Assembly (NCBI GenBank): GCA_048939465.1
Contig: JBHLPL010000049.1
Span: 1-13,478 of the forward strand
Length of the DNA: 13,478 nt
From: Promethearchaeota archaeon
GTDB lineage: Archaea > Asgardarchaeota > Odinarchaeia > Odinarchaeales > JBHLKK01
Direction of reading: 5' to 3'
The translations under genes and the position numbers were made by a program. Under the pieces are notes generated by a model that did not search any database, had not been told where the DNA came from, and saw only the letters and a program-made list of their open reading frames with translations. The stretch's first letter is position 1; every line of letters starts with the position of its first letter. Positions 1 through 11,909 of the stretch are shown in pieces.

Positions 1-426
1 GACTCTCTTTATCTTTGTCGCTCCTCCAACACTGATCTTCAATGAGCTTGCCTCGAATTTTACCTGGTCGTCAGTGGTCTCTTCCTCTTCTCCTAGTCCT
101 TCTCTTAACCTTTCGATCTTCCTTCTGAGTTCGTTAATCTTTGACAGCAGATTCTGGTTGTCTTGATTTCTCGTCTCAAGTTGATTCGATAGCCGATCTA
201 TTCGGTTCTTCATATCTTCTCTGTCGTAGTCGCTCCAGACTACTCTTGTTCCACCTTTCTCTCTCCTTGTGGAGATAAGATTCGCCGCTCTGAGAACTGC
301 AATTATGTCGTATACTCGTCTTCTGGGCATGTCAAGTAGCTGAGCCAGTCTGATGTTGTTAAGTCCTTCTTCCTTGGCTTCCTTCAGCAGGTTCACAGCA
401 GTTGTTGTTATCTCTGATAGCTTCAA
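1..426 (-). CDS. E2F/DP-family winged-helix transcription-factor-like protein with coiled coil (3' end runs off the window; absent from the ORF track)
   Basis: Manual translation from TTG at 426, with GGAGAGGGAAG upstream: MKLSEITTTAVNLLKEAKEEGLNNIRLAQLLDMPRRRVYDIIAVLRAANLISTRREKGGTRVVWSDYDREDMKNRIDRLSNQLETRNQDNQNLLSKINELRRKIERLREGLGEEEETTDDQVKFEASSLKISVGGATKIKRV. This is 142 open codons. RRRVYDIIAVL matches the E2F/DP RRxYD recognition helix, and a heptad coiled coil follows. Confidence 0.85.
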   Translation of the reverse strand, partial: MKLSEITTTAVNLLKEAKEEGLNNIRLAQLLDMPRRRVYDIIAVLRAANLISTRREKGGTRVVWSDYDREDMKNRIDRLSNQLETRNQDNQNLLSKINELRRKIERLREGLGEEEETTDDQVKFEASSLKISVGGATKIKRV

Positions 427-466
427 GCAACTTCCCTCTCCTTTTAAGAAAAATACACTAAATCGC

Positions 467-494
467 ATTTAAATAAATTATGGCCTTATATAAA
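467..494. promoter_or_regulatory. Candidate TATA boxes for the E2F-like gene (ATTTAAATAAA 467-477; TTATATAAA 486-494)
   Basis: AT-rich TATA-like motifs 40-70 nt upstream of the TTG start. Which one is used, and on which strand, cannot be determined. Confidence 0.4.
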
Positions 495-601
495 GCGAAG
501 AATCATTAAAGGCGTCTTTTCTCCTTAAATCGATAAATTATATCCTCGCACGCCCGAAATCAGCTGTCAAGTCATAGAAATCTAAGCTATTAATTTGCCG
601 A

Positions 602-1008
602 GGGTGATAGAACTCTTTTCACCCACCATTCCATGAGACTGCTGGCGCCATTCGTAACATTTTCAGGTGGCATCGTAGAATGAGTAGGTGTGAGCACTCA
701 GGCCTACCTTGGTTCATTTGAACCACATCAAGGAGACTCCGTCCGAAGGGGCGGAGAGGAATTGAGCGATCCTTGAGTACTCGTGACAAACAAGCCAATA
801 AGTCCGAAGGTACACCTCTCTTCGATGTGGAAACGGTTAATGACCTCCGAGGAAGGACGGGTAAACCCTATAGATTGACGCTATACACAAGTCACCGGGC
901 TGGGACGCTGTAACCCCCCTGATTTGACGTGCGATGAAGCCAAAGCCTGAAAGGGAATTGCGGTTATGCACAGTCATAAGCTCCTTCTGCAAGGAAGGAG
1001 TGGTTTAC
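602..1008 (+). ncRNA. Putative large structured RNA (omega/reRNA-like) without an associated ORF
   Basis: Dense hairpins: GGGTGA 602-607/TCACCC 619-624; GTAGGT 684-689/GCCTAC 702-707; TGGTTC 710-715/GAACCA 720-725; TCAAGGA 728-734/TCCTTGA 770-776 enclosing CTCCGTCC-GAAG-GGGCGGAG 737-756; GGG-TAAA-CCC 859-868; TATAG 869-873/CTATA 881-885; GACGTGC 926-932/GCACAGTC 968-975 enclosing CCT-GAAA-GGG; CTCCTTCT-GCAA-GGAAGGAG 981-1000. GNRA loops and G-U pairs favour the + strand. The ORF track shows no ORF here. The 5' boundary is uncertain. Confidence 0.6.
977..1008 (+). mobile_element. IS200/IS605-type right end (subterminal hairpin plus TTAC)
   Basis: TAAG-CTCCTTCTGCAAGGAAGGAG-TGGTTTAC follows the AAGC-[hairpin]-TAGTTCAC pattern I recognise from IS605/TnpB right ends. 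Its reverse complement resembles the GTCAACTACCCC...GGGGCTT start of HEARO/IscB elements. No tnpA, tnpB or iscB is nearby. Confidence 0.6.
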
Positions 1009-1902: not shown

Positions 1903-2178
1903 TTACTCCTTCGCGAGCAGGATTTCCATAGTGGATACATTCTGCCGCCTACCTTCTTCTCCGAGGACTTCAGTTCCTATTTCTGTCTTCTTTATCTTCA
2001 CGGTATCCTTTAGGAATCTTCTTCTTACTATTTCCACCACGTCTACAGCTTTTGATATCGCCCTTCCACGAGCTTTTACAAAGACTTCTTCTGAACCTTG
2101 GTTAAATAGGATTATCACAGCAAGGGCATAATTCATGGCGGGTTTTCGACCAATAAACACTGAGTTTTCTCTAGACAA
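1903..2178 (-). CDS. albA: DNA/RNA-binding chromatin protein Alba
   Basis: [17 protein letters not shown]...[23 protein letters not shown]...IGTE...NVSTMEI is the Alba1 signature. Confidence 0.97.
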
Positions 2179-2350: not shown

Positions 2351-3088
2351 TTGACAACTAATTCAAACAATCTTGTTGAAATTGTGGAAACCGAAAAGAT
2401 TAGTTTTAATAAACCACTCGTAATAGCAGGATTCGCGGGGCAAGGTCTCGTTGGCAGCATTGCACTAAGTTATATTGTGGACAATCTGAAGCTAAAAGAA
2501 ATCGCATATGTTCGATCAAGACTCCTCCCCCCGGCAACCATATTTATCGATGGGGTGCTTCGCTATCCCTTCCGAGTATATTCAAACGATCAAGGTACGC
2601 TTCTGGCTGTAGTCTCAGAGATTTCGCCACCTGTCGAGGGGTTCTATGACATATCTCATTCACTTATGAATTGGATCGAAAAAATGAACGTTGAGGAGGT
2701 TGTAGTTTTGTCAGGTCTTGTGGTAAGAAGCGACCCAGATCCTAAGCTAATATTCGCTGCTGCCGAGCCTGAAGTACTGGATAAATTGAGGCAACACAAT
2801 ATTCCGATCCTTACTCGGGGCTTGATAACTGGTATTGCTGCTACCATACTCAACGAGTGTATTACAAGGAGACTAACCGGGATATGCCTCCTTAGTCCCA
2901 CAACGGCAAAGCCGAATCCTGAGGCCTCTGTGACTCTGATTAGTGCATTAAACAGGGTTTATAATTTGGGCATAGAGCTGACTCCTTTAGTTAAAGAAAT
3001 TGAGCTTATCAAGAAAAAGCAACGCGAGCTTGCGGAGCATGCAGAGAAGATGAGTGATCGAGACATGGTCCAAAGCATATACGTTTGA
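2351..3088 (+). CDS. PAC2-family proteasome assembly chaperone/activator (archaeal Pba-like)
   Basis: VIAGFAGQGLVGSIA, YPFRVY, GLITGIAATILNEC and PNPEAS motifs, a C-terminal coiled coil and a terminal IYV. AGGAG lies 9 nt before the TTG. Confidence 0.9.
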   Translation: MTTNSNNLVEIVETEKISFNKPLVIAGFAGQGLVGSIALSYIVDNLKLKEIAYVRSRLLPPATIFIDGVLRYPFRVYSNDQGTLLAVVSEISPPVEGFYDISHSLMNWIEKMNVEEVVVLSGLVVRSDPDPKLIFAAAEPEVLDKLRQHNIPILTRGLITGIAATILNECITRRLTGICLLSPTTAKPNPEASVTLISALNRVYNLGIELTPLVKEIELIKKKQRELAEHAEKMSDRDMVQSIYV

Positions 3089-5601: not shown

Positions 5602-7044
5602 CTATCTGCCAAATACGGATCTTATTCTCCTTCTAGCTACTGTTATAGTAAGACCCAATGCTACGAAAGATGAAGATGCTCCCAAGGATACAATCAAAAG
5701 AACACTGTCAGAAGTAGTAGCAACGAGATCGATTATGCAGGAATTAGAAATGGAACCAGCATGAGCTCGGTCTCCTTCGTATACAGCCCAGGATTCGATT
5801 ACACCTGTAGAACCCTCAGGAATCTCCCACATAAACATCGCGACGCCGCTGTCATCTGTGTAGGATGAACCGACGCATGTGCCGTTGATGAAAAAGGATA
5901 TTTCAGAAGAGGTCATGTTGTATCCCTTTCCGAAGGATAAGGAGGCAACTAAAGTTACATTTTGTCCTGCGTATGCCAAGGAAGGAACTTCCATGCTAAG
6001 CACGGTGGGGATTTTGACTACCGTGATAGTACGGTTAATCGAAGTACAGCTTAAGTATAACTGACTTCCGAGGTACACAGCGTAGACTGTGGCATTACCC
6101 GTACAATTGCTCGTAGCATTCCAAAAGGCTATAGCCATGCCGCTTTCATTTGTGGAACTCTGATCAACATGTGTATCATTTACATAGAAATGAATTGGTG
6201 CGCCTTCTATCACGTTTTCATTCCTATCGGTGAGAGTCGCTACAATTCTTACAAAGTCTCCTGGGAAGGCCGAGAGTGGCAACTCTAATGCAAGATTGGT
6301 CTCGGACTTGGACCCAGAATATCCAAGCAGCCATTCGATTATGTTCGCAACCAGATTCTGTCCGTTACTGTTCAGAAGAGATGCATTGTTAAATCCAAAG
6401 AAAAACATATCTGGATTGTTTTCGCATCCGTAGTACCTAGCTAATGCTACATGGGACATCACCCAGCCTAGTCGGGTCAGATCGGGCGATGTTGTCTCTT
6501 CGAGCGTAAAAATATCATTGAACGCGGAGTCACTTATCAAAATATTGTTGTAACCATCATTTTCTGTGTAGGATATGTTATAGGGAGTGTTGTAGATTGT
6601 GTGATTGATTTCACCATCATATGCCTCTATGTTATCGATAGCTGAGGAGACGAACCCGTAAGGAAAGTCGGCCAGTCTCAAGATGATCCAGCCCCCATAG
6701 CCTGAGGCCAGTACAGGTTTTCCAGCGTTAGCAATAACTTGAGCTTCATTCTGGCTGATTCCATTGCCGTTGGAATCACTTACGCTGCTCCCAACGACTA
6801 TGAGGTCGTAGACACTAGCTGTTTGGGGATTCGAAAGAAACTCCTGAAGATTCATTTCCTCAAGGTTGTATTCGAATCCCATCAGTACTGCTTCCCAATC
6901 TTGATAATATGAGGGGTTAATAGGATTGTGAAGGTAGAGTATGTTTTTCTGGACGCCGGTCTGCCGACCATCAATCGTAATAGAGGCTGCACACAATGAG
7001 AATGTGAGCAAAAGCAATAAGATTAAGTTTCTTCGACGATTCAT
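5602..7044 (-). CDS. Secreted, C-terminally membrane-anchored surface protein with two Ig-like (Big-type) repeats
   Basis: Likely start at ATG 7044 (MNRRRNLILLLLLTFSLCAA signal peptide). Two similar repeats (LALELPLSAFPGDFVRIVATL...TNESGMA and LSMEVPSLAYAGQNVTLVASL...TDDSGVA), many N-x-S/T sequons, and a C-terminal TM helix followed by RRRIR. Confidence 0.85.
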   Translation of the reverse strand: MNRRRNLILLLLLTFSLCAASITIDGRQTGVQKNILYLHNPINPSYYQDWEAVLMGFEYNLEEMNLQEFLSNPQTASVYDLIVVGSSVSDSNGNGISQNEAQVIANAGKPVLASGYGGWIILRLADFPYGFVSSAIDNIEAYDGEINHTIYNTPYNISYTENDGYNNILISDSAFNDIFTLEETTSPDLTRLGWVMSHVALARYYGCENNPDMFFFGFNNASLLNSNGQNLVANIIEWLLGYSGSKSETNLALELPLSAFPGDFVRIVATLTDRNENVIEGAPIHFYVNDTHVDQSSTNESGMAIAFWNATSNCTGNATVYAVYLGSQLYLSCTSINRTITVVKIPTVLSMEVPSLAYAGQNVTLVASLSFGKGYNMTSSEISFFINGTCVGSSYTDDSGVAMFMWEIPEGSTGVIESWAVYEGDRAHAGSISNSCIIDLVATTSDSVLLIVSLGASSSFVALGLTITVARRRIRSVFGR

Positions 7045-7319
7045 ACTGCAATCACTTCTTAAGGCGAAAGCCAGCGGTTGATTTTTAAAACTTCTTACCC
7101 GCATTCAGTGGACATCATTTGCTCTCTAAATCAGCTTTAGACCCACGATTAACAATTTTATGCCAAAAAATATCTCCTGACCCATTTTTTCCTCCATATA
7201 AGGCCTCGCGATTCTTATTCCTTTTGAAAAAGCAAGATTCTGGGTGGAGATATCCGATGCAGTGTCTTGAAAAGGGATGAAAAAAACGTAAAAACGCGAC
7301 AAATAGAGCATGGTTGGAG

Positions 7320-8214: not shown

Positions 8215-8940
8215 TTACTCTCTAAGAGCCGATATCGAATCAATAAACTCGCTAGGCAGATCATAGATAATCCAATCAGACGGTCCGGCAGCAATAAGCA
8301 GTTTCCTGACTCTAACCATAGGCCTTTCTTCTCTCTTATGTTCTCTGATTTTGAACTCAAGTATTACATCAGAGTTGTACTCTATCATGTCCCTACATTC
8401 TTGATCTACCGGATCGGGAATCAATAAGAATACCACGCAGCCAAATCTTGTCGCTATTTCCCGCATCAGCAGACTGAAACTAACTGCGTGCTGAATACTA
8501 AAAAGAGTAGAAAGCGACAGCACGGAATCAACTATACAGACTGTTTTGTCCTTCATCTTACCTTCAGTAATCCTGTTTACTTCCCTAAAGGGACGCAAAA
8601 CCTCCGGACTACTTGACGGATTCGTTATTGTGAGTGGGCCAGTCTTCTCAGAGAATTTGAAGCAATTAACAAAGAATAACTTCTCTTCCTCTTCGTATTT
8701 GGCAGCGTCTATTCCTATCGATTTCAACTGTTTCCTAATCAGATCTGGCGAGTGGTCAAAAGCCATGAAGATTCCATACTTTTTTTTCTTTAACTCATTG
8801 GAGAGGATGCTGCTACTTAACAGCCAACCACTGCCCGCTGTTACGTCGTTGATAGATACCAGACTCTCTAATGGAAATCCCCCTTTCAGGATTTTGTCAA
8901 GACCAGGCAAATTTGATTTCAGGCGAGGAATTTGGTCCAC
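8215..8940 (-). CDS. KaiC/RecA-superfamily ATPase-like protein with degenerate Walker A
   Basis: RLKSNLPGLDKILKGGFP start, FDHSPDLIRKQL, CIVDSV (Walker B) and DVILEF...VRVRK are all KaiC-like. The P-loop reads DVTAGSGWLL. Confidence 0.85.
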   Translation of the reverse strand: MDQIPRLKSNLPGLDKILKGGFPLESLVSINDVTAGSGWLLSSSILSNELKKKKYGIFMAFDHSPDLIRKQLKSIGIDAAKYEEEEKLFFVNCFKFSEKTGPLTITNPSSSPEVLRPFREVNRITEGKMKDKTVCIVDSVLSLSTLFSIQHAVSFSLLMREIATRFGCVVFLLIPDPVDQECRDMIEYNSDVILEFKIREHKREERPMVRVRKLLIAAGPSDWIIYDLPSEFIDSISALRE

Positions 8941-8956
8941 CTCCGATTCTCAGACT

Positions 8957-10306
8957 CTATCCTGTTTGAATTATCCCTTTTCTTTTGAGCTTATCTATTT
9001 CCTTAAATTTCGCGGGCAAATACTCATCAACTACATAGGTTAATCCGTAGCGACTGAAGGCTTGTTGCTCTGCCTTTCTCTTAATGGAGAGGAACTTGCT
9101 GAGTTGATCTTGCCAAAACTTGGTCCTGTATCTGGGATCCTTTCTAAGCTCCTTTGTTCTTTTTATATCTTGCTCTGTGAACTTGTCTGTCGGTAGATTA
9201 TACTTCTCAATATCTGACGCCCAAACCCCCATCCAAACGGCATCGGGGGTAGCTAGTCCTCTTAGATGAGCTGCAGTGGCAGAGCCGCTTATTATAACCA
9301 TCGCAATGTGGACTCCCCAGGGATCTCCATCCGTGAAAACGTAGGCAGGAATATTGAATTCATAGTGTAGTCTTCTGATTAGTCTCCTAGTACTTCTCGG
9401 AGCTTGACCCGCCGTGTGTAATAATAATGCGTTGAAACTCTCGTGAACCCCCTCTTCAATGAATCTCGTAAACATACCACCGGATTCTATTGCAATGATC
9501 TTGTCAGCACCACAATTAACGAACTTGGAGTTTATTAAATGGGGTCCGATCATTACTCCGTCTGGATTGTCCATCATGTTGACTCTCTTGCCACGGTATT
9601 TTTCAGGGGTAGTATATTCTACGGTTAGATCGCCATATATGGCAGACCTTTCTTCTGGGAATATTTTGAAGTCCTCGCGGGGGGTTTCAATCACAGCTTC
9701 GACATCTGTAATAAGGCTGTCGGATTCCTGTTGATCCAAGAATTTAATCTTGTATGCCTCTGAAGAGTAATACACGTCTCTGAGAGTACTGCTTTTGTTC
9801 ATCCTCAACAGTTCTCTGACGAATCTCATAACCCAAATGAGTTGTGTTAAACTCTTAATTTGGCCGATGTTTCTTGCTGAGCGGGTCACCATCCTTCCCG
9901 CCAATATGTACTGCCTTGAAATGGGGTCGAACTTGATGTTTGAGGTGCTTCTGCTAGGTACATCCAGGGACGGGAATCTTCCTGAAGAAAGCTGACCATA
10001 CAGATCCAGACCAACGCCCTTCAGTTCTTTGAGTATGTCATCAGCTGTTTTCATTGATTCTTCATGGGCTCTTTCTTTCTCTTTGGTCACATGTTTCTTG
10101 ACTTTGGCCTCAGCTTTTGTGAGACGCCAGTACGTCATCCCGCCCAGTTTTATGGACTCAACAACCCCTTCTTTCGCCATACGCGTAAGGACCCGTCTTA
10201 CGGGTGCTGCTTTTTTGTATTTCAAGTTCTTCATTATGGATTTAATGGATTTCCATCTTCTAGTCAATACAGCTCTTATGGCTTCTCCGCTCAGATTTTT
10301 GGACAC
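8957..10306 (-). CDS. top6A: DNA topoisomerase VI subunit A (Spo11 family) with N-terminal extension
   Basis: TLRDVYY catalytic-Tyr motif, IIAIESGGMF Toprim glutamate, FTDGDPWG DxD motif and KAEQQA. GGAGG lies 9 nt before the GTG. Confidence 0.97.
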   Translation of the reverse strand: MSKNLSGEAIRAVLTRRWKSIKSIMKNLKYKKAAPVRRVLTRMAKEGVVESIKLGGMTYWRLTKAEAKVKKHVTKEKERAHEESMKTADDILKELKGVGLDLYGQLSSGRFPSLDVPSRSTSNIKFDPISRQYILAGRMVTRSARNIGQIKSLTQLIWVMRFVRELLRMNKSSTLRDVYYSSEAYKIKFLDQQESDSLITDVEAVIETPREDFKIFPEERSAIYGDLTVEYTTPEKYRGKRVNMMDNPDGVMIGPHLINSKFVNCGADKIIAIESGGMFTRFIEEGVHESFNALLLHTAGQAPRSTRRLIRRLHYEFNIPAYVFTDGDPWGVHIAMVIISGSATAAHLRGLATPDAVWMGVWASDIEKYNLPTDKFTEQDIKRTKELRKDPRYRTKFWQDQLSKFLSIKRKAEQQAFSRYGLTYVVDEYLPAKFKEIDKLKRKGIIQTG

Positions 10307-10307
10307 T

Positions 10308-11870
10308 CTACTTGCCCTCCTTCAAAGATTTGGATGAGTCTTTTCTTCTGGTGGAGCTTCCCGACTGGCTTTTGCTGATAATTAGCAGTCTTTTGATATT
10401 AGGGACTTCTCGTTTACCTGCAAGAAAAGAAATGTTCTCTGCCATTACTGGCAGGTATCGGCCATAAATGTCGAGACGCAGCTTCTCTCTGGCGACTCGT
10501 TCTTTTCTGTGAAGGTGTCTCATTAATCTTCTTGCACACGCTTGAATACCTTTGCGTATTTCCCCCTCAATTTCGACTCTGTCGGCTATGAATTCTTTTC
10601 CAGCAGTCTTGAAAGGTATCTTTGTGCTAACGATGTGTACAAACACAGCTATCGGCATTCCGGGCCTTATTTTGTACCGAGTCCAGTTCACTGCTTTAAT
10701 CACCTTTGCAGAGACATCCTTATACTCATCGTAGATCAGAGGAATACGATTTGCGAACCTGTACAGGACAATATTCTGCTTAAGCGGGACCCCCCCTCCG
10801 TATGCTAACCCGACCTCCGTTATAAATGGATGTCCACCGTAAGATGACGGAGGTCGTTGAGCCACTGCTACGAACTCTGGATCGAGTTCCTTGCGTATAC
10901 CTGCTTCGAGCATCTCTTCTCCCAAGGGGGATAAGCAATCAGCTGCAGGGGGGAGGAATCCTTGATAGCTTCGCATGTTGTGTACAAGTCTCACAACTTC
11001 TCCCATTGTAAGGGATTTCGGGTCTTTATTCGGCTGTATTTTGACTGACTTCAGGAATTTCTTTGCTATTCCTTTTCCTACTCTGTGGAAGTGCGTTGCA
11101 AGAAACTTGCCAATATTCCTCGTCTTTGTCTCTTCTATTAATCGCCTCACATGCTCTATATCGATTCCATGAGGATGTGGTTTTACCAACTTTGAAGGGG
11201 GGGGCAAAGCGTCGACTTTCCTGTGGAAGGTAGACAGGACTCCTTTTGGATCTATGAAGGTGATGTTTGCATAGGGTGTAATGAGTGCGGTCTCCCGAAC
11301 ATACTCGGTTACATTTAATTTCGAGCGCATCCAGTCGCCTTCAAGACTAAACTCGACAATAGTTCCATTCCAACCATTATCATTCTTTCGTCTGTCCCAA
11401 CTCAATAATTCCGGAACATTTCTTTGAATATCCATACGGAGCTTCACATCATAGATATAGCTATCATCATTCGTAGAAGTTATCACGTGAAGAGGGTTGT
11501 GCGTTGTGATCTGGCCGTAGAGATAGGCCATTTTCCCACCCAAGCCGAATCTACCTCGAGCTTGCTTATGCTTGTATTTCGAGCCGTAGAGGATTTGACC
11601 GAAGCACTGCTGTATATAATCTCTCGGAACTCCGCCTCCATTGTCCTCTACCCTTAGTTGATAGACACCGTCGCTTTCTCCCGTCAGCCTTATCAGAAGG
11701 TCAGGAAGGATATTGCTTTCTTCACAGGCATCCAAGGAGTTTTCGACTAACTCACGAACAGCGGTGTATAAGGCTCGTGCTGGATTGTCAAAACCGGCTA
11801 TGTCCCTGTTCCGATAGAAGAAATCGGCGGGACTAATGGCCTCATATATGGTAGAATTGTCTGTTGCCAT
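10308..11870 (-). CDS. top6B: DNA topoisomerase VI subunit B
   Basis: ISPADFFYRN, ELVENSLDA, VEDNGGG, RGRFGLGGK (GHKL), KPHPHG, RFANRIPL and PFKTAGKE. Start placed at ATG 11870 because GAAGGAG lies about 9 nt upstream. Confidence 0.98.
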   Translation of the reverse strand: MATDNSTIYEAISPADFFYRNRDIAGFDNPARALYTAVRELVENSLDACEESNILPDLLIRLTGESDGVYQLRVEDNGGGVPRDYIQQCFGQILYGSKYKHKQARGRFGLGGKMAYLYGQITTHNPLHVITSTNDDSYIYDVKLRMDIQRNVPELLSWDRRKNDNGWNGTIVEFSLEGDWMRSKLNVTEYVRETALITPYANITFIDPKGVLSTFHRKVDALPPPSKLVKPHPHGIDIEHVRRLIEETKTRNIGKFLATHFHRVGKGIAKKFLKSVKIQPNKDPKSLTMGEVVRLVHNMRSYQGFLPPAADCLSPLGEEMLEAGIRKELDPEFVAVAQRPPSSYGGHPFITEVGLAYGGGVPLKQNIVLYRFANRIPLIYDEYKDVSAKVIKAVNWTRYKIRPGMPIAVFVHIVSTKIPFKTAGKEFIADRVEIEGEIRKGIQACARRLMRHLHRKERVAREKLRLDIYGRYLPVMAENISFLAGKREVPNIKRLLIISKSQSGSSTRRKDSSKSLKEGK

Positions 11871-11909
11871 CTTTTGGTACTCCTTCAATCTCTAATTTCC
11901 AGTAGACCA

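Follow-up and report, generated by a model that had tools for sequence, protein, structure and literature searches.

An E2F/DP-type winged-helix protein of an Asgard archaeon that carries a coiled coil and a beta module in the layout of typical E2Fs

An E2F-like gene split by a contig end

E2F and DP proteins drive the G1/S transition in eukaryotes, and the origin of their circuit is an open question in eukaryogenesis. We analyzed a stretch of Asgard archaeal DNA (hereafter the window) that encodes most of an E2F-like protein at its very edge. The window covers bases 1 to 13,478 of contig C96 (G000:C96:1-13478), which belongs to a genome bin of 1.96 Mb in 152 contigs. An earlier note on this DNA, made from the letters alone, had described a minus-strand open frame missed by the open reading frame (ORF) track. 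This frame is indeed present; it covers 1..468, is open at its 3' end at the window start and encodes exactly the residues that the note had quoted. The gene is missing from the default ORF listing because its frame runs off the contig end. The earlier note had proposed to retrieve the rest of the gene, and a search of the same genome with a full-length orthologue found the last 44 codons at the end of contig C99. The last 4 bases of C99 are the first 4 of the window (GACT), and the joined frame continues in frame through to a stop, giving a protein of 186 residues. The gene and its upstream region contain the following features.

1..426, minus strand: E2F-like gene, codons 1-142 of 186, with a TTG start at 424-426; the remainder lies at G000:C99:13133-13268.
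229..426, minus strand: E2F/DP-type winged helix, residues 1-66, from Pfam PF02319, the AlphaFold2 model and the best solved structure found by phmmer (E2F4, 1cf7_A).
307..321, minus strand: RRVYD recognition-helix motif, residues 36-40; R36, R37, Y39 and D40 are invariant in 23 Asgard homologues.
94..222, minus strand: heptad coiled coil, residues 69-111, with Asn90 at an 'a' position; a presumed dimerisation zipper, from AlphaFold2, periodicity and HHalign.
1..72, minus strand: first half of a four-stranded beta module, residues 119-142, from the AlphaFold2 strands; residues 143-165 and a charged tail are on contig C99.
434..441, minus strand: ribosome-binding-like site GGAGAGGG, conserved in the genus.
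486..494, minus strand: TATA-like box TTTATATAA, proposed from archaeal promoter layout and located in a promoter-proximal block that is conserved within the genus.
640..653, no strand assigned: invariant 14-nt block GAATGGCGCCAGCA with the palindrome GGCGCC (644-649), a candidate operator that precedes the start codon by about 220 nt.

We assign the start to the TTG rather than to an ATG at 468, because the orthologues start with MKLSEIT and because the TATA-like box and GGAGAGGG are found upstream of the TTG. The TTG position is seen in three congeneric genomes, and the ATG would sit upstream of the likely transcript start. The closest homologue, P0002, is full-length (182 residues, 78% identity) and is annotated as Candidatus Hodarchaeota.

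The N-terminal domain is an E2F/DP-type winged helix

The N-terminal 66 residues are an E2F_TDP winged helix in which the base-contacting RRxYD helix is intact. Pfam E2F_TDP (PF02319) matches residues 17-69 of the 156-residue frame with 34.2 bits against a cut-off of 25.7 (E=2.2e-8), whereas TrmB (PF01978) reaches 14.0 bits against a cut-off of 25.6 (E=0.046). The AlphaFold2 model displays the elements of a winged helix, with helices at residues 3-17, 24-31 and 35-47 and strands at 51-56 and 59-64. Among solved structures, the best sequence matches by phmmer are E2F4 (1cf7_A) and E2F8, so that the E2F4-like alignment previously drawn by eye is reproduced by a sequence search.

We extracted 30 further Asgard loci with the domain and aligned 23 proteins (alignment A1). 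R36, R37, Y39, D40 and W64 are invariant across these homologues, and E2F_TDP is the best Pfam family for all of them, above cut-off and with a best E of 4.4e-11. A family profile built from A1 was scored against 1.84 billion cluster representatives at a threshold of E<=0.001. This search yielded 2243 matches, in which about 40 Asgard representatives come first and eukaryotic E2Fs directly next, with E from 1e-15 to 1e-8. Most of the eukaryotic E2F matches span the DNA-binding domain and continue into the coiled coil (profile positions 5-110), a few extend to position 160, and all four that were examined have both E2F_TDP and E2F_CC-MB by Pfam. The best 150 matches include 96 of E2F type and no DP; the protein is nearer to E2F than to DP. 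A word-indexed homologue search with the same profile gave only Asgard proteins among the matches listed, within the length window of that search. Membership of the E2F/DP winged-helix family, which the earlier note had proposed, is secure.

A coiled coil and a beta module follow the DNA-binding domain

AlphaFold2 models were made of the full-length orthologue P0002 (pLDDT 85) and, separately, of the last 118 residues (pLDDT 88). The models agree with the order read in the earlier note, a winged helix, then a coiled coil, then a beta-rich segment, of which only the first half is inside the window. A helix of about 42 residues (69-110, pLDDT up to 98) is followed by strands at 128-134, 139-144, 149-153 and 158-164 and by a terminal helix. 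The conserved hydrophobic columns of the long helix, compared in 19 full-length homologues, recur with a 3.5-residue periodicity over about six heptads. The window protein has an Asn at one 'a' position of this coiled coil, as is typical of parallel dimeric zippers.

The beta module carries a motif, G-x-E-V-x-I-E ... G-x-x-V-x-P, that is kept in all Asgard lineages, including short forms without the coiled coil. Forms that have the beta module without any coiled coil occur in several Asgard lineages (L008, L027, L035, L057-L063). The protein ends 20 residues past the beta module in a tail rich in Glu and Lys, and its 186 residues include no C-terminal transactivation or Rb-pocket-binding region.

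Is the C-terminal half an E2F dimerisation domain?

The modeled layout of the protein is the same as that of typical E2Fs. We compared the whole model with 550,129 AlphaFold/Swiss-Prot models, and the best 23 matches are all typical E2Fs (E2F1-6 or plant, fly or worm E2Fs) at E 2e-5 to 5e-4. These 23 align query residues 1-169 to the DNA-binding domain, the coiled coil and the marked box of the hit (residues 130-301 of human E2F1, 66-241 of E2F6). DP proteins come after the E2Fs, with DPA, DPB and dpl-1 at ranks 24, 25 and 29. The atypical E2F7/8, which have no coiled-coil/marked-box module, are absent from the top 30 although their DNA-binding domain is equally similar by sequence. When the C-terminus alone was compared with 350,542 solved chains, rank 1 was E2F1 (2aze_B, E 1.0) and rank 2 a chain of E2F5-DP1 (5tuv_A, E 1.5); DPA is the rank 3 fold match for the C-terminus alone. 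Furthermore, HHalign of 171 Asgard C-termini against 33 eukaryotic coiled-coil/marked-box regions brings the coiled coils into register (P=7.6e-5), and the coiled coil begins at an equal distance past the terminal Trp in the Asgard proteins and in E2F. Residues 66-170 on their own, used in a language-model feature search, gave a eukaryotic E2F_CC-MB cluster as the best named match (score 0.75), which we take as a lead only. The coiled coil is probably equivalent to that of E2F.

These results bear on a reading in which the coiled coil and beta module are homologous to the E2F/DP dimerisation domain, the protein binds a palindromic site of the GGCGCC type as a homodimer, and E2F and DP come from a duplicated self-pairing ancestor. 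We give this reading a probability of roughly 0.4. Its structural core, namely homology of the C-terminal module to the coiled-coil/marked-box of E2F/DP rather than likeness in layout alone, falls a little short of an even chance. Several results weigh against it. Pfam E2F_CC-MB (PF16421) and DP (PF08781) match none of the 23 homologues, PF16421 giving nothing at E<=1; of the Pfam comparison suggested in the earlier note, only the E2F_TDP part came out above cut-off. The beta module aligned by HHalign to the 33 eukaryotic marked boxes has P=0.36, no better than 30 column shuffles, and its hmmsearch scores on marked boxes equal those of reversed decoys. The C-terminal profile scored against the sequences of solved structures picks up generic coiled coils with as much as 16.5 bits, with E2F chains absent at E<=10, and the fold matches of the C-terminus alone are not significant (E about 1-4). 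Moreover, the eukaryotic E2Fs used in the HHalign and decoy tests were the top scorers of the full-length profile search, a set biased to good coiled-coil matches; the coiled coil scores 9.4 bits on real against 2.8 bits on reversed sequences, an excess inflated by this choice. Realignment of the C-terminal model with VIA superposes the long helix only, and a shape search of the ESM Atlas with the same model is dominated by the helix. Of the full E2F/DP architecture suggested in the earlier note, the winged helix and the coiled coil hold, the order of domains agrees with typical E2Fs in the fold search, and a marked box is plausible but not recognizable by sequence.

An even chance goes to the explanation that only the DNA-binding domain is homologous to E2F/DP, with the coiled coil and beta module being an Asgard-specific addition of like layout, which is the position of Eme et al. 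2023. The missing Pfam matches, the lack of sequence signal between beta module and marked box, the insignificant C-terminal fold matches and the generic coiled coils that score on par with E2F against the C-terminal profile all suit this explanation, as do the lineages that have the beta module but no coiled coil, so that the module is freely combined. It accounts less well for whole-model fold matches that are solely typical E2Fs through three modules while atypical E2Fs are missing, for E2F1 and E2F5-DP1 coiled-coil/marked-box chains heading the solved chains, for the shared spacing from the terminal Trp and, as a lead, for the language-model match. Two further explanations were considered. 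One holds that the protein is a generic archaeal winged-helix regulator of the TrmB, ArsR or MarR kind, whose resemblance to E2F is at clan level only. Foldseek with the whole model against solved structures indeed lists winged helices of ArsR, MarR, AspA and ScpB (E 4e-3 to 3e-2), and none of its best 50 matches is an E2F chain. This search is uninformative, since each solved E2F structure covers the DNA-binding domain alone or the coiled-coil/marked-box alone. Some homologues also match Pfam TrmB at E down to 4e-6 and a few are named TrmB by JGI. Yet E2F_TDP is the best family and above cut-off in 23 of 23 homologues, with TrmB far below in the window protein; the Arg and Tyr-Asp of RRxYD, together with W64, do not vary; and right after the Asgard family the exhaustive profile search yields eukaryotic E2Fs, not TrmB or ArsR. 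Neither of the outcomes that the earlier note had listed as telling against an E2F assignment was obtained. The generic-regulator explanation is largely refuted, and we consider it very improbable. The other explanation, improbable though less so, is a structural DNA-binding protein with a winged helix and a coiled coil, acting in the nucleoid, in segregation or at centromeres (AspA/ScpB kind) and not as a gene-specific factor. Its support comes from weak fold matches that include AspA (the pNOB8 centromere-binding protein), ScpB and TrmBL2, from the lack of enrichment of E2F-type sites in the non-coding DNA of the genome, and from the genes for Alba and topoisomerase VI in the same window. 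However, these fold matches cover the generic winged helix only, no partition ATPase or condensin partner adjoins the gene, whose neighbourhood is unrelated metabolism, and the invariant base-contacting RRxYD argues for sequence-specific recognition.

Relation to known E2F and DP proteins

E2F_TDP domains were found in 123 of 301 sampled Asgard genomes and in 0 of 14 control genomes. Asgard E2F/DP homologues are already published, contrary to the novelty implied in the earlier note: they were reported in most Asgard groups as arCOG02749, with sequences printed (Eme et al. 2023, Nature 618:992, Suppl. 4.1.5 and ESP tables), and were restated in a 2024 review (PMC7617429). One of our loci, L056, reads the same as the entry 'Sifarchaeia WORA1_15620' in the E2F/DP table of Eme et al. 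2023, and, like the window protein, has the winged helix and beta module characteristic of the family layout. The window gene adds a further member, split by a contig end in this assembly, to this published family. According to Eme et al. 2023, the Asgard homologues are without a dimerisation domain and without the Rb-binding/transactivation region. The window protein and most family members differ from this description in having, after the DNA-binding domain, a conserved coiled coil and beta module in the layout of typical E2Fs. We found no paper in the literature that describes such an E2F-like coiled coil and beta module in Asgard homologues, and this is the sole point at which our analysis goes beyond the literature; Eme et al. 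2023 describe these parts as missing.

Typical E2Fs (E2F1-6; PF02319 and PF16421; structures 1CF7, 2AZE, 5TUU/5TUV) share with the window protein the RRxYD winged helix, the terminal Trp, the spacing to the coiled coil and, in the models, a four-strand beta meander. They differ in that the beta module of the window protein has no detectable sequence similarity to theirs, and in that the window protein, with 186 residues against 280-460, has no N-terminal extension, no Rb-pocket-binding/transactivation tail and no DP partner. Their recognition helix reads NVL where that of the window protein reads AVL. DP1/DP2 (PF02319 and PF08781) likewise combine a winged helix of this family with a coiled coil and a beta domain, giving weaker fold matches; the window protein has no PF08781 match, and its recognition helix is RRRVYDIIAVL as against the DP-type RRRVYDALNVL.

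A second type of Asgard paralogue is present in the same genome. Its gene (G000:C33:7525-7983; L002:1243-1701, minus strand) encodes 152 residues with KKRRIYD and an E2F_TDP match of 35 bits, and adjoins a gene for a Rab-like small GTPase. This type, listed as 'Hermodarchaeia WORB2_22320' in Eme et al. 2023, shares the E2F_TDP winged helix; it differs in having no coiled coil and in an unrelated, alpha/beta-looking C-terminal domain of about 85 residues. It is the sole E2F-like gene in four sampled genomes of the sister family f2.

Predicted mode of action

The likely overall explanation is that the gene encodes a 186-residue member of the published Asgard family of E2F/DP homologues, with a coiled coil and a beta module, that would form a dimer. 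Dimerisation would proceed through the coiled coil, with the beta modules probably packed together as in the coiled-coil/marked-box unit of E2F-DP. Self-pairing is the most likely arrangement because most Asgard genomes hold a single copy of one E2F-like type. No DP partner was found, and a homodimer prediction for residues 62-170 scored 0.35 against a mark of 0.42 and favours neither outcome. Such a dimer would set two RRxYD helices on a short, GC-rich and roughly palindromic E2F-type site (core GGCGCC or similar) and would work as an archaeal repressor or activator of the usual kind. Its targets in this genus may include its own promoter region. The protein is without an Rb-pocket-binding or transactivation tail, and therefore control of the cell cycle in the eukaryotic manner is not implied.

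If the pairing module proves homologous, a complete E2F/DP unit for DNA binding and pairing would predate eukaryotes. The ancestor of the E2F-DP heterodimer would in that case be an archaeal factor that paired with itself, and eukaryotes would have invented only the Rb- and cyclin-linked tails, which came later. Homology would also contradict the published statement that the Asgard homologues are without a dimerisation domain. The question is approachable: these small proteins look soluble, and there is a candidate palindrome for them to bind.

Candidate DNA sites

E2F sites have GGCGCC as their palindromic core, and GC-rich sites of the E2F type include TGGCGCCA and TTTSGCGC. Upstream of the window gene, GAATGGCGCCAGCA is identical in three genomes of the genus while its flanks have diverged. 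GGCGCC is also found upstream of the orthologues in all four members of one other genus, at -126 to -133 and in one of them as ATTTGGCGCCAATT, and upstream of the orthologue in one member of another genus, at -25 and downstream of a TATA box. From its presence upstream in 3 of 16 genera, the protein may bind DNA of the TTTSGCGC type.

Other counts speak against a general role for this site. GGCGCC is absent upstream of the orthologues in 13 further genera, and its a-priori Poisson P is ~0.05. In an unbiased screen of upstream 6-mers, GGCGCC ranked first in 7 genera, with a raw P of 3e-4 that lost significance on correction, and it was no longer the top 6-mer once 16 genera were screened. The genome holds 95 occurrences of GGCGCC, 16 of them non-coding, and 165 of TTTSSCGC, 24 of them non-coding; neither motif is enriched in its non-coding DNA relative to coding DNA or to control motifs. 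Autoregulation through the GGCGCC block would be confined to this lineage and is neither established nor general; we regard it as a reasonable hypothesis that is less likely than not. A different element, TTTCGGGCG at window 551-559, was ruled out as a site; it is not conserved in the congeners.

Three perfect TTTGGCGCC sites lie in non-coding DNA elsewhere in the genome, at G000:C138:13399-13407 (L043), C131:4004 and C134:6876. They are 100-155 nt upstream of four genes, which encode TFB (TFIIB-like, cyclin-fold), a Cas4/Exo5-like nuclease and a divergent pair of a zinc-ribbon protein and a class-V aminotransferase. These associations are anecdotal, since the motif is not enriched genome-wide. 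In three genera of family f14 (L008, L057, L060), TTTGGCGGTA is found 55-150 nt upstream of short E2F-like genes without a coiled coil, and TTTGGCGCTA is upstream of an E2F-like gene in another lineage (L050). TTTGGCGGTA and TTTGGCGCTA may represent a lineage-specific operator; they were not prominent among the 6-mers of the unbiased screen.

Neighbouring genes

Gene order on both sides agrees with that of a congener contig (L040): aldehyde:ferredoxin oxidoreductase, PAC2, Alba, a CxxCxxCC protein, the E2F-like gene and a 116-residue unknown protein. Near the E2F-like gene, the Alba chromatin protein is encoded at 1903-2178 (minus strand) and a homologue of the PAC2-family proteasome assembly chaperones at 2351-3088 (plus strand), in the order kept in L040. 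The spacer between the CxxCxxCC gene and the E2F-like gene is 578 bp here and 287 bp in two congeneric genomes. About 290 bp of it (window 716-1004) are without a counterpart in the two congeners and hold two CCTTCGGAC repeats; tRNA and Rfam scans of the window, including this extra stretch, gave no match. Further along, topoisomerase VI is encoded on the minus strand by two neighbouring genes, subunit A at 8957-10306 and subunit B at 10308-11888, with a KaiC/RadA-like ATPase gene at 8215-8940. A minus-strand gene at 5602-7104 encodes a probable surface protein of 500 residues that contains bacterial Ig-like domains (Big_3_5, Big_1).
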